Shown here piece after piece: positions 6,607-27,783 of a stretch of DNA of 37,691 bases. The notes beneath the pieces were generated by a model. That model did not search any database. It saw only the letters and a program-made list of their open reading frames with translations, and had not been told where the DNA came from. The DNA comes from Candidatus Heimdallarchaeota archaeon (GTDB lineage: Archaea; Asgardarchaeota; Heimdallarchaeia; Heimdallarchaeales; Heimdallarchaeaceae), in NCBI GenBank assembly GCA_016839945.1, contig JAEOTE010000054.1, forward strand, positions 1 through 37,691, given 5' to 3'. Made by a program: the position numbers and the translations under genes. How positions within the stretch are numbered: position 1 is the first letter of the stretch; the number at the start of each line of letters is the position of its first letter.

Positions 6607-7260
6607 TTAACCATCTTCTGGATAGCACAATTCCCATCCTGGATTATATGAATGTATCATCTCCATTATCTCAGTATATCCCGATGTGGAGAAATATTTT
6701 TGGGGGCAGCTCCTTTCTCCTCCTTCAATAACATCAAAATGAATATGTGCCCCTCCATTAACATATAGAAATCTTGCAATTTCTTGCCCTATTTCTACCC
6801 AGTCTCCAACCTGTACCTTGAACATAGCAAGTTGTTTATCTTTGTCGACTTCTGTTGTAGTCCAGGGTTCAAAATTATATCCAATTTCTACAGTTTTATT
6901 GAATCTGATCCAAATTCTGGCATGGAATCTATTCTCTACTCCCTCTCCATAATCTTTCCATTCTATCTTTTCTACTCTTCCAGGTGTTGCAGCAAGAACT
7001 TTAGTATTGTTAAGTAGGAAGTAATCTATTCCTTGATGTTTAAATCCCCAGGGGCAACTATCAGTCTCACTATAACCTTCATTAAAAGCATAAATATCAG
7101 ACCTGTTTTCATAAATCACATCCATATAATTAAGATGATTTGAAGGATAACGATTTCCGGCATTGAAGGTCAACTTACCCCAAAAGAAATAAAGAGCAGT
7201 AGCACCAACACCAGCACCTACTATTAGTAAGATAATTAAGATTACCTTGAGCTTTCCCAT
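6607..7260 (-). CDS. M23-family metallopeptidase, N-terminal membrane anchor (copy A)
   Basis: Canonical 'HQGID' and 'AHIHFD' zinc motifs, 'VLAATPGRV', 'VQVGDWVEIGQEIA'. Confidence 0.8.
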   Translation of the reverse strand: MGKLKVILIILLIVGAGVGATALYFFWGKLTFNAGNRYPSNHLNYMDVIYENRSDIYAFNEGYSETDSCPWGFKHQGIDYFLLNNTKVLAATPGRVEKIEWKDYGEGVENRFHARIWIRFNKTVEIGYNFEPWTTTEVDKDKQLAMFKVQVGDWVEIGQEIARFLYVNGGAHIHFDVIEGGERSCPQKYFSTSGYTEIMEMIHSYNPGWELCYPEDG

Positions 7261-7293
7261 TACTATGCATATTAGAAAGATGGTTTAAAAGTT

Positions 7294-8193
7294 TTAAGCA
7301 TAGAATTTCTGAAGGTCATCTACAATGGCTTTTATTATGTTCCTGTCAGAAAAATAGCAAGCATGACTCATAGGGTTCCAACCTTTTAGAATACCTCCAG
7401 AGAAAACCTCTTTATCAATAATCATTGGATATTCGTTCTTTCTAGCATTCTCACATCTTTTAGCATATTCTTCGTTAATAACACCTATTGGATAGGCTAT
7501 ATAATCGCTTTTGTTGTAGAAATTCACCCATTTATTAACTTCAATTGGTTTTCCAAACTTTGGGTTAGAGAATAGAAGAGTTACTAAAGGTAAAGGATTT
7601 CCTAATGTATAAAGAAATCTCAGTGTTTCTCCTCTTTCTAATGGGGTTTTTGTTTCCTTAAAGGAAGCAGTATTTCTAGAATCTTGAAGATATGATAGAA
7701 AATAGTAGGTAATAATAGCTCCTAAACTATGAGCAAACATTATCAGATTAACATTACCTCCTAATTCTGAAGCATGTTTCTTAAGCTCATCTAGAAACTT
7801 AGTATTAACCTTTTCAAACAGAGACTCATTGTTTTCTTTGTATAACAAGTACATTATAGGATAGCCAAAACAATCAAATAGAAAGGATTTAACTCCACTC
7901 CAACCAGGAACAGATTTCTTAAAGAAGATCGATTTTTTCTGATTTCTAGCTCCCATCTCATACTTCTCTTTCAATTCCTCTAAAGTAGGATCCATGAACT
8001 CAGACCATTTCAAGTCCTTAACAACCACTTTATCCTTAAGATATTCAATTTTGTTGACTTGTTTTAGTAGTTTATTTTTACACTTAGCAAACTCTTGATC
8101 AAAATATGTATATTCTAGGTCATTGGTATCCTGATTGAATTCTTTTATCATTACACCATGAGTAACTAAAATCAATGTTTTTTCATTGTTCAT
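7294..8193 (-). CDS. Lipase-like alpha/beta hydrolase
   Basis: 'LVTHG', 'AHSLG' elbow, 'YTLGNPL', 'WVNFYNKSD', 'SHACY'. Confidence 0.7.
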   Translation of the reverse strand: MNNEKTLILVTHGVMIKEFNQDTNDLEYTYFDQEFAKCKNKLLKQVNKIEYLKDKVVVKDLKWSEFMDPTLEELKEKYEMGARNQKKSIFFKKSVPGWSGVKSFLFDCFGYPIMYLLYKENNESLFEKVNTKFLDELKKHASELGGNVNLIMFAHSLGAIITYYFLSYLQDSRNTASFKETKTPLERGETLRFLYTLGNPLPLVTLLFSNPKFGKPIEVNKWVNFYNKSDYIAYPIGVINEEYAKRCENARKNEYPMIIDKEVFSGGILKGWNPMSHACYFSDRNIIKAIVDDLQKFYA

Positions 8194-8321
8194 GTTTTAC
8201 CACTCTCTTAAGAAAAACACATTAAAAACTATTTTCAAACTTAAAAATATTGTTGAAACTTCGATACCCTAAAATATTTTAGATTGTGTTCCGTATGTTT
8301 CTTATCTATAGGTGAAAATTC

Positions 8322-8786
8322 ATGAATGACAAAGAAAAAATAGAGTTTTTTGTTAACCAGATTAATTTAGAAAAAGAAATTGTAGAAGCTGCAGAAAGTT
8401 CAATTAAAGATGTTAAGAATGAATTAGTTAGAGAATTGATTCTTGCGATTGCACTTGATTCGAAAAAACATGCAGGAATGCTAAATGCTCTTTTAACAAT
8501 AACTTCCTCTGTTCAACCTTTCATAGAAGAAGAAAAACTAGATGAGCTTTCAGAGAACATTGAAAAACATATTGAACTTGAAGCTAAAGCAATTGAAACC
8601 TATAAAGAAATACTTCCAGAATTAGAAAATGATCAAGAAAAAATAGTTATACAAGCCATATTAAGTGATGAGTTACGGCATCATGCTCTATTAAAAAGAA
8701 TCCTTACATCTATAAAAGAAAGAGAAGCTTTAACTCAAGAAGATTTCTGGGATTCAATAAAGGATGATTTCATTCCTCAATATTAG
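8322..8786 (+). CDS. Ferritin/rubrerythrin-like four-helix diiron protein
   Basis: Two repeated halves with E...'DSKKH' and E...'DELRH' motifs. AGGTGA RBS upstream. Confidence 0.75.
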   Translation: MNDKEKIEFFVNQINLEKEIVEAAESSIKDVKNELVRELILAIALDSKKHAGMLNALLTITSSVQPFIEEEKLDELSENIEKHIELEAKAIETYKEILPELENDQEKIVIQAILSDELRHHALLKRILTSIKEREALTQEDFWDSIKDDFIPQY

Positions 8787-8844
8787 CTTTTTTTTCGAAT
8801 TCCCAACATTTATTAGTGTAATTGGTGTCTAAAAGATTGATTCT

Positions 8845-9717
8845 ATGAAAATGAAAGAGATAGGAACAAGAGGTTTACTATTTTCTTTTGATAATCCATA
8901 CAAGACCAATATTTATGTAATAAATGGCGAGAAATTCGTTTTTATTTGTGATACGTTCCTTGGACCTGATCCCATGAATGAGGTTATTAAAGAACTCAAG
9001 AAAAAAGGTTTTCTTCCTAAACCTGTAATAGTATTTAATTCTCATCATGACTATGACCACATTTGGGGAAACCAATGTTTCAAAGATTCTATAATAATGT
9101 CTCACGAAATGTGTTTAAATAAAATCGAAGATATCGGAGAAAAAGATTTAGAAGATTATAAAGATCATCAAAAAGGTGATGTTCAACTTACTTTACCTAA
9201 TGTGGTTTTTAAAGATAAGGTATTTTTTGAAGAAGAAGGAGTAGAGTTTTATCATACACCTGGACATACTGAAGACTCAGCTTCGTGTTTCGATCATATT
9301 GATGAAGTTTTGTTCGTAGGAGACAATCTTGAAACTCCTCTACCTTATATACGTATATTAGATATACCTGAATACATAGCTACACTAGAAGAATATCTGG
9401 AAAGGGAACCCGTTATTATACTGTCAGGACATGATGATATAATGTTTACAAATGAATTTCTTCAGCAAAATCTTAACTATTTGAAAGAATTTCAAGAGGA
9501 ATCTGTTGATAAAACTAATTTTACTCAGAAACATAAAGGAATACACTTTATGAATCTCCAACACATAGGGGAACTACTTAAAGAAAGAGGAGATATGATG
9601 GGAGCATTATCATATTATGAAGAAGCTCTAAATATACTGAAAGAGATTGAAAGTAGTCCCCAGATAGAGACTAAGAAGGAGGAGTTAAAGAAAATTATAG
9701 GGGAATTAAAAAAATAA
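8845..9717 (+). CDS. Metallo-beta-lactamase fold hydrolase with C-terminal TPR-like helices
   Basis: 'SHHDYDHIWGN', 'TPGHTEDS', 'GD', 'SGH'. The C-terminus 'GDMMGALSYYEEALNI' is TPR-like. Confidence 0.85.
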   Translation: MKMKEIGTRGLLFSFDNPYKTNIYVINGEKFVFICDTFLGPDPMNEVIKELKKKGFLPKPVIVFNSHHDYDHIWGNQCFKDSIIMSHEMCLNKIEDIGEKDLEDYKDHQKGDVQLTLPNVVFKDKVFFEEEGVEFYHTPGHTEDSASCFDHIDEVLFVGDNLETPLPYIRILDIPEYIATLEEYLEREPVIILSGHDDIMFTNEFLQQNLNYLKEFQEESVDKTNFTQKHKGIHFMNLQHIGELLKERGDMMGALSYYEEALNILKEIESSPQIETKKEELKKIIGELKK

Positions 9718-9781
9718 TTGATTAAAACTACTATTGAATTAAGTTTTTCGCACAAAAGTTTTAAAAATACCATGTTCAAGA

Positions 9782-9821
9782 TAGAGATATCTCTACTAGT
9801 ATAAATTTAGAACTAGTATAA
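9782..9821. promoter_or_regulatory. Palindrome cluster upstream of iorA
   Basis: Perfect palindrome TAGAGATATCTCTA (9782-9795), followed by ACTAGTATAA twice (9795-9804, 9812-9821). Confidence 0.4.
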
Positions 9822-9855
9822 CTATCTATAATATCGATTACAATGGTTAACGACA

Positions 9856-11766
9856 ATGAAAGCAGCAGATTCTAAAACAGATATAGATGTAGTTGAAGGA
9901 GAGGGGGAAGAAGTTCAGTTACTTATGGGTAACAGAGCAGTTGTTCAAGGTTTACTTGAAGCTAAAGTTGGCTTAACTACTGCTTATCCGGGAACTCCAA
10001 GCACTGAAATTCAAATGCAATTGTATAAGTTGCATCAAAAAGGGCAGCTTTATTTTGAGTTTTCAGTCAATGAAAAAGTAGCTTTTGAGATTGCAGGAGC
10101 AGCTGCACTTTCTGGTGTTCGATCAGCTGTAATAATGAAACATGTGGGATTGAATGTTGCCTCAGATTCATTAATGGCTCTTGCATATTTTGGAGTTATA
10201 GGAGGAATGGTAGTTGTTGTTGTTGATGACCCAGGATGTTTGTCTAGTCAAAATGAACAAGATTCTAGATTCTGGGGAAAATTCTCACACTTACCAATTT
10301 TGGAACCCTCAACTTCTCAAGAAATTAAAGACACAATAGTTCAAGCTTATGAATTATCTGAAAAGTATAACACAATAATCTTAGTTCGATTAACAAGCTT
10401 TACTTCATTAAATACTGCAGAAGTTAAGATGAAAGTTGTTGAAGAGAAGTTAGCAAAAGATGGTGACTTCTTCAAGGATATAAGATATGCACTTCCAGCA
10501 AGGTATGTTCTCCACAAAGGTTTGCATGCCATTCTTGAACAAATAAAAGAGGATGAGGACTTTTTAGGAAATAATGAGCTTAAATATGGAGATTCAATAT
10601 CTGATAGATTGATCATCACTCAAGGTGCTATCTATCCAATGGTTGAATACATGAGAAACCTCAATAATTTAGACATTCCTATTTTGAAGATAAATGCAAT
10701 TCATCCTTTAAATGAAAAACAAATTGGTGAATTTCTTAAGAAATACAAATACATCTACTTCGTTGAGGAACTTGAAAGCTATCTAGAAAGTGAAATATTA
10801 AGTATAATTGGTAAATACAACTTAAATTTGAAAGTATTTGGGAAAGAACAACTTGCTATTCCTGAAGAAAATAGAATTTTACCCGATGTATTAAGTGAAG
10901 CTTTCAAGAGGATTGCTACAGATCCGAATAATGAAGAAATATTTAAGGTTAAACCTCCAGTGCCATCTCCATATGCACATGTTTTTGGAAGAGTAGATCA
11001 ATTAATCCCCAGAACAATTCCACGTTTATGTGATGGTTGCTGTCATAGAGGTGCGTTCTATTCAATAAAGAGAGCAACTAAGAAAACAGACATAATTCCT
11101 TCTGATATAGGCTGTTACGCCTTAGGACAAGTGTTTCCTGTAGATATAGGAGATTTCTGGCTATGTATGGGAGCAAGCATAGGAACAGCAATAGGATTCT
11201 CATTAACAAATGATAAGCCTGTAGTAGCAGTTATAGGAGATGGAACATTCTTCCATGCAGGTATTCCTCCTCTTATTGACGCTGTTCTTTATAATCACAA
11301 CATTACAGTAGCGATTCTAAATAACTCTCTTACAGCTATGACTGGAGGACAACCCACTCCCAGCTCAGATGAGAAAAAAGCAAAAAATCAAAGACAGCTA
11401 GATATTGAGCAGGTAGTTCGAGGTTTAGGAGTTGAATATGTAAAATCAGTAAGAGTTGAAGACACAAAAGAAAATACCAAGATATTTAGAGAAGCAATGG
11501 CTCATGAAGGACCTTCAGTTGTAATTTTTAATGGTGAATGTGTTGTTGAGCTTTACAGACATAGTTTGGATTTAGGTGAAGCACCATATGTTGATGAAGA
11601 GCTCTGCAATATGTGTGGAACATGTTTTATTGAATTCTCTTGTCCTTCAATCATAAAGAAGGATGGTCAGATTGTTATTAGAGAAGATACGTGCACTGCA
11701 TGTAATATTTGTGTAGGAGTTTGCCCTCAAACTGCAATTATTCCTCGCAAGAAGAAGAAGGTGTAA
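9856..11766 (+). CDS. iorA: Indolepyruvate:ferredoxin oxidoreductase alpha subunit
   Basis: 'AYPGTPSTEI', 'NEKVAFE', 'MKHVGLNVA', 'SSQNEQD', TPP motif 'IGDGTFFH...NN..TAMTGGQ', two C-terminal 4Fe-4S motifs. Confidence 0.95.
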   Translation: MKAADSKTDIDVVEGEGEEVQLLMGNRAVVQGLLEAKVGLTTAYPGTPSTEIQMQLYKLHQKGQLYFEFSVNEKVAFEIAGAAALSGVRSAVIMKHVGLNVASDSLMALAYFGVIGGMVVVVVDDPGCLSSQNEQDSRFWGKFSHLPILEPSTSQEIKDTIVQAYELSEKYNTIILVRLTSFTSLNTAEVKMKVVEEKLAKDGDFFKDIRYALPARYVLHKGLHAILEQIKEDEDFLGNNELKYGDSISDRLIITQGAIYPMVEYMRNLNNLDIPILKINAIHPLNEKQIGEFLKKYKYIYFVEELESYLESEILSIIGKYNLNLKVFGKEQLAIPEENRILPDVLSEAFKRIATDPNNEEIFKVKPPVPSPYAHVFGRVDQLIPRTIPRLCDGCCHRGAFYSIKRATKKTDIIPSDIGCYALGQVFPVDIGDFWLCMGASIGTAIGFSLTNDKPVVAVIGDGTFFHAGIPPLIDAVLYNHNITVAILNNSLTAMTGGQPTPSSDEKKAKNQRQLDIEQVVRGLGVEYVKSVRVEDTKENTKIFREAMAHEGPSVVIFNGECVVELYRHSLDLGEAPYVDEELCNMCGTCFIEFSCPSIIKKDGQIVIREDTCTACNICVGVCPQTAIIPRKKKKV

Positions 11767-22309: not shown

Positions 22310-23215
22310 TTGATAAAGATTTTAAATGTTTTAAACAATACTATTGTTGTGATTATACTCGAAAGAAGCGATGATTATGACGAGAACTTCGAGATAGATT
22401 TCAATTTAAGGAATCTAGTAAATACAATTCTTATGCATCTCAACTCGTTCTTAGAGTATTTAGCAGATAACCATCCTGATCAATTCCTTCCATATATTAG
22501 AGCTTTAGGGAAGAAACTTTCTGATATCATTAAAAAAGAAGAAGTTTCTGCTGTTGTTTTTTCATTACTCAGGAATTACAGATTAAAACAAAAAGGTAAG
22601 GATTTAGTAATACTAGACTTCTTCCGCTTGTTACAAAGTAAACTTATTGAAGTTATTAAAATCTCACTTAATCTTAACAAATATTACTTTTCCAAACGAG
22701 GGACGAAGTTAAAAATAAAGTTATTTGACAGAACCAAGGGAAGAATCATCCCAAACTATCTGATTGTTGTTGTACTTAAAGACTTCATGCAAAGAGAGGA
22801 AGCCATTGAATTCTATAAGGAATATATTGATTATGTTTATGAAAGCAAAGAAGTAGCTCCCCCTACAATGGAGTATGTGGAAGAGATGGTGGAGTTATTT
22901 GAAAAAGAATACAAACACACACACAATTTTGTTGCTTTTAAACAAGTAGAAGGACAAATTGGAGTGAAAGTAAAAAAATGCATGATTCGAGAGGTTTTAA
23001 GGGATTTTGATGAGAATTATGATAAGGAATTAGCATATTATGCTGTTTGTTATCAAGATTTTCACACAACGAAGAGGATGAATAAGAACTTTAGTTTAAC
23101 AAGAGAAAAAACGGTAATGATTGGAAATTCCTATTGTGATTTTTGTTGGGTAGATAAAAGATATGAGAAAGAAATAAAACATCCTGAAAAAGAATTCTGG
23201 GTGGATTTGGAATAA
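22310..23215 (+). CDS. L-2-amino-thiazoline-4-carboxylic acid hydrolase-like (V4R-related) domain protein
   Basis: C-terminal 'KKC...VCYQDF...LTREKTVMIGNSYCDFCW'. The start is uncertain. Confidence 0.75.
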   Translation: MIKILNVLNNTIVVIILERSDDYDENFEIDFNLRNLVNTILMHLNSFLEYLADNHPDQFLPYIRALGKKLSDIIKKEEVSAVVFSLLRNYRLKQKGKDLVILDFFRLLQSKLIEVIKISLNLNKYYFSKRGTKLKIKLFDRTKGRIIPNYLIVVVLKDFMQREEAIEFYKEYIDYVYESKEVAPPTMEYVEEMVELFEKEYKHTHNFVAFKQVEGQIGVKVKKCMIREVLRDFDENYDKELAYYAVCYQDFHTTKRMNKNFSLTREKTVMIGNSYCDFCWVDKRYEKEIKHPEKEFWVDLE

Positions 23216-23225
23216 GATAATATCT

Positions 23226-24440
23226 TTAGATTATTTTCGTCTTTCTTCCGACCTTTTCAAAGATTTCTAATGCTTGATCAAGTACATCATCTGTCATGGT
23301 TGCCATATATGAAGTTCGAACCAATTCTCTTCCTTCTTGGGTTGCAGGAGCCATAACAGGATTAGTGAAAATTCCTACTGGTTTATGTTTATACAAATCC
23401 ATGAAGAAACTCAAGGTTTTCTTAACCCCTCCAATTATCAATGGAACAATAGGTGTTTCAGAAGGTCCAGTATCATAACCCATATCTGATAAACCATTTC
23501 TCATTTTATCTCCAATTTCAGTTAATCTATTTTTATAAGATTCATCGTTTTCAATTAAATCTAAGATAGCTATTACTGTAGCACAAGTAGCAGGAGGTGG
23601 GCTTGCTGAGAAGATAAAGGATCTAGCTTTATGACGTAGCCAGTTGCAGATTTTCTTATTTGCAGCTATATATCCACCAACTGTTGCAAATGTTTTGGAA
23701 AAGGTTCCCATTGTAACATCTACTCTATCTAAAAGATCAAAGTGAGCTGCAGTACCTTTACCATAAGGACCTATAACGCCTACAGCGTGAGCATCATCAA
23801 CATAAACTCCAGCCTCTCTCTCTTCAGCTAAATCTACAATGGTATCTAGTTTCGCAATCGCTCCTTCCATACTAAATACGCCGTCAGAAACAATCAGAGC
23901 TTTTCCTTTTGGTACTTCTTTAATACATTTTTCAAAGTCTTCCATATCATTATGTTTGTAGATTTTCTTATTCTCTGAATCATTTTTACCTAATCTAATT
24001 CCATCAATAATTGATGCGTGATTACATTGATCAGAAACAACCCACTCATCTTTCTCTGAAAGCAGAGCTGAAAGAGTTCCAAGATTTGCTTGCATTCCAG
24101 TAGAATACACAACACAATCCTCTGTACCAACAAATTTTGCTAATCTCTCTTCTAGCTCTATGTGAATTTCCATAGTACCATTAAGTAATCTTGAACCTGT
24201 TGAGCCAACACCATATTCATCAATTGCCTCTTTTGCTGCTTTCTTCACTTTGGGATGAGAAGTCATTCCAAGATAGTTGTTACTTCCACACATGATTGTT
24301 TCTTTTTTCTCATCCATTATAACAACAGGATTTTGTTCTCCACTGATGGGATGGAAATAAGGGTAATAGCCTTGAGCTTTAGCAATAGTAGGTTCTCCAA
24401 AACGATAATAACGATTGCATTTCTTGAAGAATTTTGACAT
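23226..24440 (-). CDS. PLP-dependent alpha-oxoamine synthase, bacterial serine palmitoyltransferase-like
   Basis: 'GYYPYF', 'GSNNYLG', 'GSRLLNGT', 'NHASIIDG', 'DGVFSMEG', 'DDAH', 'GTFSK', 'FIFSASPPP'. Confidence 0.85.
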   Translation of the reverse strand: MSKFFKKCNRYYRFGEPTIAKAQGYYPYFHPISGEQNPVVIMDEKKETIMCGSNNYLGMTSHPKVKKAAKEAIDEYGVGSTGSRLLNGTMEIHIELEERLAKFVGTEDCVVYSTGMQANLGTLSALLSEKDEWVVSDQCNHASIIDGIRLGKNDSENKKIYKHNDMEDFEKCIKEVPKGKALIVSDGVFSMEGAIAKLDTIVDLAEEREAGVYVDDAHAVGVIGPYGKGTAAHFDLLDRVDVTMGTFSKTFATVGGYIAANKKICNWLRHKARSFIFSASPPPATCATVIAILDLIENDESYKNRLTEIGDKMRNGLSDMGYDTGPSETPIVPLIIGGVKKTLSFFMDLYKHKPVGIFTNPVMAPATQEGRELVRTSYMATMTDDVLDQALEIFEKVGRKTKII

Positions 24441-24460
24441 ATCTATCCACCAAACTTAAC

Positions 24461-24490
24461 ACTAAATATAACAATATGATTATATTTAGT
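24461..24490. promoter_or_regulatory. Inverted repeat ACTAAATATAA-N8-TTATATTTAGT upstream of the SPT-like gene
   Basis: Perfect 11-bp arms, 21-50 bp upstream of the ATG. Confidence 0.55.
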
Positions 24491-24616
24491 TGAAATCAAA
24501 CCAATAATTCTTCTACTTATATTTAAAATGTTTCACGCAAATGAAATAGCTTCGAAACAATTTCAAGGTTTTGGAGTAGTGTTTCTAATTAAAGGAAAAT
24601 AGAAATAAGAAAGTAG

Positions 24617-25093
24617 TTAGTACCCTTTGAGTGTTCTAACTGGACCACTGCATTCTGGGCATTCTCTTTCTCCAGTTCTTACTTCAAATCCACAATACTC
24701 ACAAAATCTAGGTTTTTTAACACCTGAAGATGTATAGTTTGGTGAGAAAGGACCTATTAGATTTTTCCTCATATTAGTAACAGCTGATGAAATGGTTTTC
24801 CTTCTAGAGGTTACAAAAGAAAACAATATAGGCATTCCTAGCAAAGGCAGTGCTCCAGCTACACCAAATAGGATGTAATTACCAATCCATAACTTATCTA
24901 AATCAACACCACCGCCACCGCCAATATCACCAAAAGACATGAAGATAAAAGCGAGTCCTGCTATTACTCCCCCAACTTCTAATAATCCAAATAAAATTAA
25001 AGCGTATTTGAAACCTTTTCCTTTTTTATCTGTAGACTTTGATGTCATTCTAAATATTCTATTCTTTTTAATTTTTAAAGTTTGAGGGTACAT
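24617..25093 (-). CDS. Two-TM membrane protein with C-terminal zinc ribbon
   Basis: Two hydrophobic helices, CEYC...CPEC. Confidence 0.7.
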   Translation of the reverse strand: MYPQTLKIKKNRIFRMTSKSTDKKGKGFKYALILFGLLEVGGVIAGLAFIFMSFGDIGGGGGVDLDKLWIGNYILFGVAGALPLLGMPILFSFVTSRRKTISSAVTNMRKNLIGPFSPNYTSSGVKKPRFCEYCGFEVRTGERECPECSGPVRTLKGY

Positions 25094-25102
25094 GCAATAT
25101 TC

Positions 25103-26308
25103 TCAAGATTTTTGTTCTTTTATAAGAAAAATTCCTGAATTCATGTCAACTTCTTTTTGTAACATCTGAAAAGCAAAAGCTGATGTTGAAAAAGGTATAG
25201 CATCCAAAATTGTTGCAATCCTTGCTAATTCCTCATCAAACATTCGAACATAAACAGTAATATTGGGATATTTTTGTTTCAATGCTTTAGTCAGCATTAT
25301 AGCATCAGAAAGAAATTCTTCTTCATTCCAACAAATGTATACTTGTGAAACATCTTTAAGATTGCAAAAATCCTCTATACTTTCAAGATATTTGACTTCC
25401 TCATTATAAACATGTATAGTCTCAAGATCAAATAAATCAAGATCAATTATAGGATCAATAACATAAATCTCCTTCTTTAATTCCTCTCCGATGTATTGAA
25501 TAATCCTTTTAACGGTAGAATCATTTCCTAAAATTACTACTGAACCATCGATACCTTCAGTCCATTCCTTTATTGATTCCATGATCCAACCTGAGGTTGA
25601 GAAAGTATATGCATCCCATGGTTCTTCTTCCAAATATTCTCGGAAATGTTCGTCAAACATCCTCATAAACAATTTACAGTCTTCATTAAGTTCTCTTGCT
25701 TTCTCAGCAGCAATTAGAGAACTGCGTAGGTTACTTGAAACGCAAAAAACTTCTTTGCATTTCTTAATACCTGATAGCTCTATTATGTCATCACTTGTGT
25801 AATCCCCCACAACTACAGGCTGTCCTAAACTGATCAATTCTTCAACTAAACCCATTTCTTGTTCAACTAAAACATAAGGACGTTTATGTTCCCGTAGAAA
25901 TTCTACGATTCTTTCTCCAAGATGGTTATAACCCAACACAACAGTGTGATTGGACTGACGTTTAGCTAAATCTCTTGCACGATTCACTGGATTAAAACTG
26001 TAATATTCAAGCAAAACTGTAACAATTATACTTAGAATAAGAAGTTCAAATAAAAGAGGAAAAAGGAATCGATAAATTGAATAGAAAATTGATGCAGTTC
26101 CTTCTCTTAACAATAAGGATGTTAGAATAATATTGGAGAAGCTTTTATCAGCTTCAACTACAGAAAAAACAACTAATCCAATTACCCAGAACAAAACAAG
26201 GATTAAAGCAGCAATTAGTAATTGTTTTATTTTTCCTTTTAACAAGAAAAAACTTGCTTTCTTTGAAGTTTTAGTAGAAGAACGTTTAGTGCTTCTAGAT
26301 GCTTGCAT
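25103..26308 (-). CDS. TrkA-N/RCK domain membrane protein (K+ channel-like)
   Basis: Two N-terminal TM helices, 'HTVVLGYNHLG', 'VVVGD', and a second degenerate RCK 'VVILGND'. Confidence 0.75.
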   Translation of the reverse strand: MQASRSTKRSSTKTSKKASFFLLKGKIKQLLIAALILVLFWVIGLVVFSVVEADKSFSNIILTSLLLREGTASIFYSIYRFLFPLLFELLILSIIVTVLLEYYSFNPVNRARDLAKRQSNHTVVLGYNHLGERIVEFLREHKRPYVLVEQEMGLVEELISLGQPVVVGDYTSDDIIELSGIKKCKEVFCVSSNLRSSLIAAEKARELNEDCKLFMRMFDEHFREYLEEEPWDAYTFSTSGWIMESIKEWTEGIDGSVVILGNDSTVKRIIQYIGEELKKEIYVIDPIIDLDLFDLETIHVYNEEVKYLESIEDFCNLKDVSQVYICWNEEEFLSDAIMLTKALKQKYPNITVYVRMFDEELARIATILDAIPFSTSAFAFQMLQKEVDMNSGIFLIKEQKS

Positions 26309-26366: not shown

Positions 26367-26762
26367 TTAGCCTTCTTCCTCAAATTCAAGAGAAACAGAA
26401 TTTATACAGTATCTTAATCCTGTAGGTTTTGGTCCATCATCAAAAACATGTCCAAGATGTCCGCTACAGTTTTTGCAGAGAACTTCTGTTCTAACCATAC
26501 CATGTGATGTATCTTGTTGTTCCTCAATATTTTCATCTTTTTCTGGAGAATGAAAACTAGGCCAACCACACCCAGAATCAAATTTAGTTTCTGAAGTGAA
26601 TAAAAGAGCTCCACAACCTGCACATTTGTATGAACCTTTTTCTTTATGATTCCAAAACTTTCCTGTAAAAGCTGGTTCAGTACCCTTTAATCTTAAAATC
26701 TGGTATTGTTCGTCTGATAATTCTTCTTTCCATTCTTTTTCTGATTTCTTGGGTAAGTTCAT
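26367..26762 (-). CDS. msrB: Peptide-methionine (R)-S-oxide reductase
   Basis: 'GTEPAF', '[11 protein letters not shown]', '[11 protein letters not shown]', 'RYCINS'. Confidence 0.97.
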
Positions 26763-27240: not shown

Positions 27241-27783
27241 ATGAATGCGAAAGATGATGATGTAAAAGGATACAAAAGAAGTATTCATGAAAGTCGAAAA
27301 GATATAGCTGGAGAACATAAACTATCAGATTTGGGACAATTGTTTTTTCTAATTACATTTTTGATAATCTGGGGATTGGATTCATTTTATTTCAGATTTT
27401 CCACTTTTTTAGCAGATTATGGGTATATCTACATTAGAGCTCCAATAGCCGCTATTTTGTTCATAATAGCTGGATTTTTAGCTTACAAAGGTTTAAAACA
27501 AGTATTCAATGAAGTAAGAGATTCTCCTGCAGTTATAAAAACTGGTGTATTTGCATATTCAAGACACCCAATATATTTTGGCTCCATTCTTGTTTATGTT
27601 GGATGGATTCTATTAACAATGTCCCTGATTTCTTTGGGTTATTGGGTGATTATCGTCATATTCTATGAATATATTGCTACATATGAAGAGAAACTACTTT
27701 TGAAACAATTTGGGAAAGAATATGAAGATTATAAAAAACAAGTACCAAAATGGATACCAGGAACGAAATTTAAGAAGAAATAA
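27241..27783 (+). CDS. Isoprenylcysteine carboxyl methyltransferase/PEMT family membrane protein
   Basis: 'TGVFAYSRHPIYFG', 'EEKLL..QFGKEY..Y...VPKWIP'. Confidence 0.88.
   Translation: MNAKDDDVKGYKRSIHESRKDIAGEHKLSDLGQLFFLITFLIIWGLDSFYFRFSTFLADYGYIYIRAPIAAILFIIAGFLAYKGLKQVFNEVRDSPAVIKTGVFAYSRHPIYFGSILVYVGWILLTMSLISLGYWVIIVIFYEYIATYEEKLLLKQFGKEYEDYKKQVPKWIPGTKFKKK

Follow-up and report, generated by a model that had tools for sequence, protein, structure and literature searches.

The window, meaning the whole 37,691-nucleotide stretch of DNA analysed here (contig JAEOTE010000054.1 of a Candidatus Heimdallarchaeota archaeon), carries on its minus strand a gene for a pyridoxal 5'-phosphate (PLP)-dependent alpha-oxoamine synthase, P0001, which our analysis supports as being of the type of the bacterial serine palmitoyltransferases (SPTs), the enzymes with which sphingolipid synthesis begins in Bacteroidota. 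The gene is a 404-residue open reading frame with an ATG start at 23226..24440. A first-pass annotation, made from the sequence alone, had located the same frame and given no strand; the four peptide strings that it quoted are all found in the translation, KAQGYYPYF at residues 21-29, GSRLLNGT at 82-89, GTFSK at 245-249 and RSFIFSASPPP at 273-283. The locus is laid out as follows.

22310-23215, plus strand: ATC_hydrolase-like gene (Pfam), convergent with the synthase gene.
23226..24440, minus strand: P0001, the SPT-like PLP-dependent alpha-oxoamine synthase (open reading frame, NCBIfam, Protein Data Bank, trees, motifs, AlphaFold2 model, dN/dS).
24441..24616, minus strand: AT-rich upstream intergenic region of 176 bp with TATA-like TTTAAATA / TAAATATAA boxes, found by eye.
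24617..25093, minus strand: P0276, a 158-residue protein with two predicted transmembrane helices and a C-terminal CxxC...CxxC zinc ribbon (translation).
25103-26308, minus strand: TrkA_N protein (Pfam).
26367-26762, minus strand: MsrB (Pfam).
27241-27783, plus strand: 180-residue membrane protein of the ICMT/PEMT/steroid-reductase-like methyltransferase superfamily (best NCBIfam model isoprenylcysteine O-methyltransferase, 49 bits).

As the first-pass annotation had remarked, no bio, tdh or acyl carrier protein (ACP) gene is adjacent to the synthase gene, whose neighbours are the ATC_hydrolase-like, two-helix zinc-ribbon, TrkA_N and MsrB genes. The intergenic region at 24441..24616 probably holds a separate archaeal promoter for P0001, a putative assignment judged by eye. 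The archaeal origin of the contig, which the annotation had presumed, is confirmed by homologues and by synteny, and the contig did not prove bacterial, one of the outcomes set beforehand as refuting. NCBI assigns the nearest homologues of P0001 (65-75% identity) to Candidatus Heimdallarchaeota, and those at about 60% identity come from Thermoplasmata/Thermoplasmatota, Lokiarchaeota and Thorarchaeota. The locus is syntenic with a 51-kb contig of a Heimdall metagenome-assembled genome (MAG), sharing the TrkA_N, ATC_hydrolase-like and 141-residue genes by tblastn, and POR and Lactamase_B Pfam domains are present at both loci alike.

P0001 matches the Pfam family Aminotran_1_2 (aminotransferase class I/II) with an E-value of 1e-52 and is identified from its sequence as an alpha-oxoamine synthase. 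Its best NCBIfam model is SerpalmtaseCFB (NF047600), the model of Bacteroidota SPT, at 435 bits against a cut-off of 640, ahead of TIGR01825 (394 bits, cut-off 535), the Kbl model NF005394 (390, cut-off 460), the BioF model TIGR00858 (348, cut-off 426), the beta-proteobacterial SPT model (327, cut-off 500), the KBL model TIGR01822 (311, cut-off 493) and the alpha-proteobacterial SPT model (278, cut-off 670). The nearest solved structure is likewise a Bacteroidota SPT, that of Sphingobacterium multivorum (8GUH/3A2B, 332 bits); it is followed by a Thermus BioF/KBL enzyme (275 bits), the KBLs (about 250 bits), the proteobacterial SPTs of the Sphingomonas type (220-235 bits) and cysteate acyltransferases (218-221 bits). 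The AlphaFold2 model of P0001 has a predicted local distance difference test (pLDDT) score of 94, and its top Foldseek match is 8GUH. Like the Bacteroidota SPTs of S. multivorum and the Bacteroidales, to which it is about 42-46% identical over the full length, P0001 is a soluble single-domain protein of about 400 residues; it shares with them its catalytic and PLP-contact residues, six sequence motifs and a common cluster in the trees. It differs from them in falling under the 640-bit equivalog cut-off, in belonging to an archaeal clade of its own, in two contact residues (A79T and M271I) and in its archaeal host.

The same scores leave room for a housekeeping short-chain enzyme, either the glycine C-acetyltransferase (KBL) of threonine catabolism or the 8-amino-7-oxononanoate synthase (BioF) of biotin synthesis. 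Several homologues are named 8-amino-7-oxononanoate synthase by JGI and NCBI, KBL and BioF models reach 348-394 bits, the Thermus BioF/KBL enzyme ranks second among the solved enzymes, and the fold is as close to KBL as to SPT. P0001 has the fold and chemistry of KBL (E. coli 1FC4, the Bacillus tdh-kbl operon) and of the TIGR01825 family, at 34-43% identity. However, neither curated cut-off is reached, and both the motifs and the trees separate P0001 from these enzymes.

The catalytic set of P0001 comprises N54, Y56, G82-S83, H141, S190, D215, H218, T246, S248, the PLP lysine K249 and R375. In the Sphingobacterium SPT the PLP and substrate contacts are N52, G80, S81, H138, S185, D210, H213, T241, S243 and K244 (PMC10196870), and all of these, together with Y54, are kept in P0001; the exceptions among the contact residues are A79, which is replaced by threonine, and M271, replaced by isoleucine. 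Tyr25, Tyr27 and Phe28 of the YPYF segment, with Phe83/Leu84, belong to hydrophobic cores that lie at the substrate pocket and the dimer interface of the same enzyme (PMC10196870). Six motif states are common to the archaeal clade and the SPT references and are not those of KBL or BioF: G-x-YPYF near the N-terminus, which KBL and BioF are missing; GSR[FL]LNGT, which reads VR.I.GT in KBL and GSRLTTGN in Bacillus BioF and in P0194; FSMEG, against FSMDG in KBL and BioF; GTFSKS[FL]A, against GTLSKA.G; R..IFSAS, which differs in both; and L[IV]R.S.MAT, against ARIR. The first-pass argument that GSRxLNGT and GxYPYF are SPT-like, and not signs of BioF or KBL, thus stands when set against real Bacteroidales SPT, KBL and BioF sequences.

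Annotated reference sequences for the phylogeny were drawn from plasmid and chromid records. The SPT reference is a Parabacteroides distasonis protein (L004:3974-5161), which passes the NF047600 cut-off at 683.6 bits; the others are Bacteroides finegoldii and Prevotella homologues, E. coli Kbl and BioF, Rhizobium 5-aminolevulinate synthase (ALAS), the Kbl proteins of Legionella and Bacillus, each encoded beside tdh, and a Bacillus BioF from within a bio operon. In a FastTree phylogeny of 108 rows the archaeal clade (support 99) falls within a 71-row clade (99) that holds the Bacteroidales SPTs, with KBL and BioF outside it. An IQ-TREE phylogeny (LG+G4, 55 rows, ultrafast bootstrap / SH-aLRT) recovers the archaeal clade of Asgard and Thermoplasmatota sequences at 100/100, a 35-row cluster of this clade with SPT-like sequences, including the Parabacteroides SPT, at 93/89, and a KBL clade at 90/94; KBL and Bacillus-type BioF again lie outside the 35-row cluster. 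Within the SPT cluster the archaeal clade forms a separate 100/100 group in a polytomy, in trees drawn without proteobacterial SPTs, eukaryotic SPTs and cysteate fatty acyltransferases (CFATs). The approximately unbiased (AU) test rejects the union of the archaeal clade with KBL (difference in log-likelihood 71.7, p 0.008) and with Bacillus-type BioF (57.5, p 0.010); a clustering with BioF or KBL, another outcome named in advance as refuting, was not found.

The genome itself, a 3.0-Mb assembly of 88% completeness (G000), encodes a second alpha-oxoamine synthase (G000:C32:25535-26728), which scores 454 bits to TIGR01825, 419 to Kbl and 311 to the SPT model and whose companions in the trees are a haloarchaeal enzyme and the tdh-linked KBLs of Firmicutes and Proteobacteria; a KBL-like role therefore already has a candidate. 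Neither BioB (best match 57 bits, cut-off 225) nor a zinc-type Tdh was found in this 88%-complete assembly, and bio and tdh genes are absent from the neighbourhood of the synthase in the window and at 19 related loci. P0001 thus differs from KBL in its six motif states, its AU-rejected clade and the absence of a tdh neighbour, as well as in the presence of the C32 enzyme in the KBL-like position, and we consider a housekeeping KBL or BioF function highly improbable. These sequence comparisons support the view that P0001 is an SPT-like enzyme of an Asgard archaeon and neither a BioF nor a KBL.

The strongest functional clue is the gene linkage seen in relatives. All four Thermoplasmatota-type orthologs (P0037, P0056, P0080 and P0084) lie in a one-strand run of an AMP-binding enzyme of about 550 residues, the synthase and a short-chain dehydrogenase/reductase (SDR) of 272-275 residues. 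An SDR gene is found directly upstream of the synthase gene in nine Heimdall relatives, two of which (P0004 and P0017) were placed by exact look-up; the other seven are loci of the window's own genus, where one of the pairs is cut by a contig end and another (L019) has identities that agree with those of P0017 and may therefore be that very locus. The ligase is upstream of the synthase in one family member (L021). In the Heimdall MAG GCA_014730365.1 a PlsY gene (L044:4097-4759, plus strand) immediately precedes the SPT-like gene, which has the same orientation, and the P0027, P0107 and G026 loci show no SDR, ligase or PlsY within the flanks read.

The route to a sphinganine-like base takes three steps, in which a fatty acid is activated and condensed with an amino acid, and the 3-keto group is then reduced. 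The two synthase-linked SDRs that were scanned both have the 3-ketodihydrosphingosine reductase model NF049977 as their best NCBIfam match, over the full length, at 327 bits for the Thermoplasmatota protein (L036:9224-10042) and 243 for the Heimdall protein (L035) against a cut-off of 400; for L035 a generic SDR model scores almost as well. The linked ligases match long-chain-fatty-acid-CoA ligase models best, at about 480 bits and under the cut-offs. We take NF049977 to be based on BT_0972 of Bacteroides thetaiotaomicron; a single control genome scored above its cut-off. BT_0972 is a characterised 3-ketosphinganine reductase, catalysing the second step of the pathway (PMC9278070), and the L036 and L035 SDRs resemble this type of KdsR in their best model and differ from it in scoring below 400 bits. 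The Bacteroidales SPT gene adjoins a diacylglycerol-kinase-family gene, where the archaeal relatives have a FadD-like ligase and an SDR linked to the synthase.

In two of the Thermoplasmatota operons (L045:1885-3012, 7488-10350; L047:1875-3023, 7143-9471) a divergent sulfotransferase gene and an epimerase/3-beta-hydroxysteroid dehydrogenase-type gene flank the core, and two or three hexapeptide-repeat acyltransferases follow the ligase-synthase-SDR genes. The sulfotransferase and acyltransferases are candidate enzymes for sulfating or acylating the base.

We think it probable that the archaeal-clade synthase works like bacterial SPT, and infer its amino-acid substrate, acyl chain length, product and the fate of that product from the known enzymes. 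P0001 would be a soluble PLP-dependent alpha-oxoamine synthase of the homodimer type, in which a small amino acid, most probably L-serine, would form the external aldimine with the PLP held on Lys249. The amino acid would then be condensed, with decarboxylation, onto a long-chain acyl-CoA supplied by the single FadD-like ligase of the genome, giving a 3-keto long-chain base, either 3-ketodihydrosphingosine or a close analogue. The adjacent KdsR-like SDR would, in most relatives, reduce the keto base to a sphinganine-like base; in the sublineage of this genome the reductase gene is no longer adjacent, and no ortholog of it was found there. Whether some Asgard and Thermoplasmatota archaea make sphingoid long-chain bases through their own three-gene module of FadD-like ligase, SPT-like synthase and KdsR-like reductase, with the reductase dropped in this sublineage, is to our minds an evenly balanced question. 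If they do, the product of this sublineage may be the keto base, or it may be handled by a different enzyme. The sphingoid-base or amino-lipid synthesis suggested by the first-pass annotation thus finds backing in the ligase and KdsR-like linkage of the relatives and none in this genome's own complement of reductases.

An unlikely alternative, though one that deserves attention, is that P0001 is a long-chain acyl alpha-oxoamine synthase that is not specific for serine and that joins alanine, glycine, threonine or cysteate to a fatty acyl-CoA, giving a 1-deoxy or otherwise non-canonical base, a sulfonolipid-type base or a signalling aminoketone. The Sphingobacterium SPT recognises the side chain of serine largely through water-mediated contacts (PMC10196870), and the amino-acid substrate therefore cannot be read from the sequence; A79 of that enzyme is a threonine in P0001, and the archaeal clade stands apart from the SPTs that pass the cut-off. 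The sulfotransferase and hexapeptide acyltransferases of the two Thermoplasmatota operons hint at a modified product, and the KdsR-type reductase was not found in this genome. The cysteate fatty acyltransferases (Capnocytophaga CFAT 28EH, Alistipes SulA 7U7H) represent the same SPT-related long-chain-base synthase scaffold of the Bacteroidota; they are reported to have Gly-Ala where SPT has Gly-Ser (PMC13692747), and the CFAT-type pocket includes a lysine from the other subunit. P0001, however, keeps the Gly-Ser-Arg loop of SPT and scores 218-221 bits to the cysteate enzymes, which lie outside the sampling of the trees, against 332 bits to SPT, and the neighbouring SDRs of its relatives match the ketosphinganine reductase model best.

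The locus in the window departs from the arrangement of the relatives. In G000 and its closest genomes, G202 and G298 (92-94% identity), the locus has one and the same rearranged order of TrkA_N gene, two-helix zinc-ribbon frame and synthase, with the ATC_hydrolase-like gene convergent and with no SDR. No KdsR-type ortholog was found in G202 or G298 either, in assemblies that, with G000, range from 72 to 88% complete. The best match of G000 to NF049977 has 172 bits against the cut-off of 400 and is a different paralog, so that the search for KDSR homologs, proposed as a check on the first-pass reading, has candidates in the linked SDRs of the relatives and found no ortholog in this 88%-complete genome. 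This SDR, encoded on contig C50, was rejected as the ortholog of the missing reductase: it is 36-37% identical to the partner type and, since G193 and G026 have it alongside the true partner SDR, is judged to be a separate paralog. It could nevertheless do the job of the reductase. G298 gave no SDR match at an E-value limit of 1e-25. In G026, a complete genome in one contig, the partner SDR (51% identity) lies about 2 Mb from the synthase.

It is conceivable on this evidence, if very unlikely, that the gene is a relic in this sublineage, with the module broken up, the reductase lost and the synthase either in another role or on its way out. The three genomes share the SDR-less locus and yielded no KdsR-type ortholog, and the gene is missing from about half of the genus. 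Against this, the ratio of nonsynonymous to synonymous substitution rates (dN/dS) of the synthase is 0.05-0.06 at a dS of 0.6-0.7 in comparisons of P0001 with G202 and G298, which indicates continuing strong purifying selection; the catalytic residues are all intact, a ligase ortholog is kept, the SDR is likewise unlinked in the complete relative G026, and the three assemblies are just 72-88% complete.

The only AMP-binding gene detected in G000 (C145:12144-13841; L039:8145-9845, plus strand) shares 59% identity with the ligase that is linked to the synthase in G220 and 50-54% with those of the Thermoplasmatota operons, and by these identities is the ortholog of the synthase-linked ligase, on another contig than the synthase. 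It is divergently paired with a gene for a fusion of a threonine-synthase-like PLP enzyme with a PadR-type winged helix (L039:6401-7747, minus strand); as a cysteate synthase this fusion was set aside, having a generic ThrC match alone. PlsY is an acyl-phosphate:glycerol-3-phosphate acyltransferase, and G000 holds two genes of its family (C15:10788-11414 and C175:40477-41094), where four archaeal control genomes gave no match. There are also a gene of the DegV fatty-acid-binding type (L040:3942-4817, on C50) and two DAGK_cat lipid kinases. The two PlsY genes and the DegV gene fit a capacity for fatty-acyl and lipid metabolism in the lineage.

Several points weigh against an SPT function in sphingoid-base synthesis. 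No curated NCBIfam cut-off is reached by P0001, that of the Bacteroidota SPT model included (435 against 640 bits), and the KdsR-like and ligase neighbours of the relatives fall under their cut-offs as well. P0001 scores higher to the KBLs (about 250 bits) than to the proteobacterial SPTs (220-235 bits), and the fold does not separate SPT from KBL, because the AlphaFold2 model has a template-modelling score of 0.92 to both. Serine specificity is not readable from the sequence, and the substrate may instead be alanine, glycine or some other amino acid. The groups compared in the AU tests were named after inspection of the tree, the unnamed rows of the trees were picked as top matches to the query, and the proteobacterial and eukaryotic SPTs and the CFATs are outside the sampling. 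There is no reductase gene adjacent to P0001 and no KdsR-type ortholog was found in the 88%-complete G000, the best SDRs of G000 and of G202 being only 36-37% identical to the partner type. Finally, no ceramide-synthase step was identified: TLC/Lag1 (PF03798) was unmatched, a result that is uninformative as the control gave none either, and bCerS and CerR were not searched.

Clustering of 1.8 billion library proteins at 50% identity leaves a single representative of the archaeal clade (P0068, 447 bits to NF047600), below which the matches fall to 48% identity or less, many of them fused to other domains. The Bacteroidota SPT model is the best one for all of the ten nearest library representatives (447-625 bits), and none of the ten reaches its cut-off. 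Among 301 sampled genomes of the phylum, orthologs of at least 55% identity occur in about 27, to which the genus of the window contributes roughly half of its 22 sampled genomes, and relatives of 45-50% identity in nine more. Most other matching genomes hold only a match of about 40-45%, which we take to be the KBL-like paralog, these matches not being individually classified. In both trees the Thermoplasmatota sequences nest among the Asgard members of the archaeal clade, where two Loki sequences are their sister group. This nesting suggests a transfer of the gene, or perhaps of the whole module, between Asgard archaea and Thermoplasmatota.

The first-pass annotation had also seen in the enzyme a relevance to the origin of eukaryotic lipids, and for this we find no direct support. 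Eukaryotic SPT (SPTLC1/2, LCB1/2) has the same type of reaction and the same fold; P0001 scores only 155-175 bits to it and is without the membrane anchor and the heterodimer partner. To human SPTLC2 it scores 175 bits, below the Parabacteroides SPT at 219, and by this bit-score comparison, made with eukaryotic SPTs outside the trees, no special kinship of the archaeal clade to eukaryotic SPT is seen; P0001 looks closer in sequence to bacterial than to eukaryotic SPT.

Sphingolipids are regarded as a trait of eukaryotes and some bacteria, and archaeal membranes as built of isoprenoid ethers. If the three-gene module does operate as proposed, sphingolipid-type chemistry would be a trait of all three domains, and it would occur in the same archaeal groups as bacterial-type acyl-lipid genes such as PlsY. 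This bears on the 'lipid divide' and on claims of an Asgard affinity for eukaryotic sphingolipid metabolism. Given a gene that is conserved, under selection and linked to a ligase and a reductase in relatives, archaeal long-chain-base synthesis can be tested directly by one assay of a recombinant enzyme. A combined lipidomic and metagenomic study of the Black Sea found no archaeal MAG encoding Spt-like proteins and stated that archaeal groups had never been reported to make sphingolipids (PMC11334938); the papers covered by our literature search likewise contain no report of an archaeal SPT. A 2026 Nature paper describes a global Asgard association of eukaryotic sphingolipid metabolism, with SPT unmentioned in the passages available to us (PMC12872458), and a 2026 preprint gives Asgard sister relationships for GBA2, SGPL1 and SGPP1, SPT not being among them.

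Some further features of the locus and its relatives may be noted. P0276, which has no Pfam or NCBIfam match, has homologues (32-38% identity) that adjoin the synthase or its SDR in L012, L013, L015, L017, L018, L035 and L041, and a zinc-ribbon neighbour of this type recurs in the genus at at least seven related loci; that it might tether or regulate the soluble synthase is pure speculation. The 180-residue ICMT-like protein, of a lipid- or prenyl-modifying type, is encoded 2.8 kb from the synthase, and a functional link between the two is not shown. The haloarchaeal relative of the second synthase of G000 (L030:1801-4077, on a Halobellus limi plasmid) lies just downstream of a gene of the NAD-dependent epimerase/dehydratase family, which may be a pairing with an SDR-type threonine dehydrogenase; the G000 paralog is without an epimerase/dehydratase-type neighbour. 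Bacterial relatives of the synthase stand in varied lipid or polyketide-type clusters, as in L032 and L033 (Thioclava and Methylocystis plasmids) and L023 and L031 (Aureispira and Rubrobacter). In one type an N-terminally extended synthase is accompanied by a separate adjacent ACP, an AMP-binding enzyme, a polyketide synthase, a class-III aminotransferase and a methyltransferase; in the other a stand-alone synthase is accompanied by an NAD(P) oxidoreductase and by a hypothetical protein some 380 residues long.

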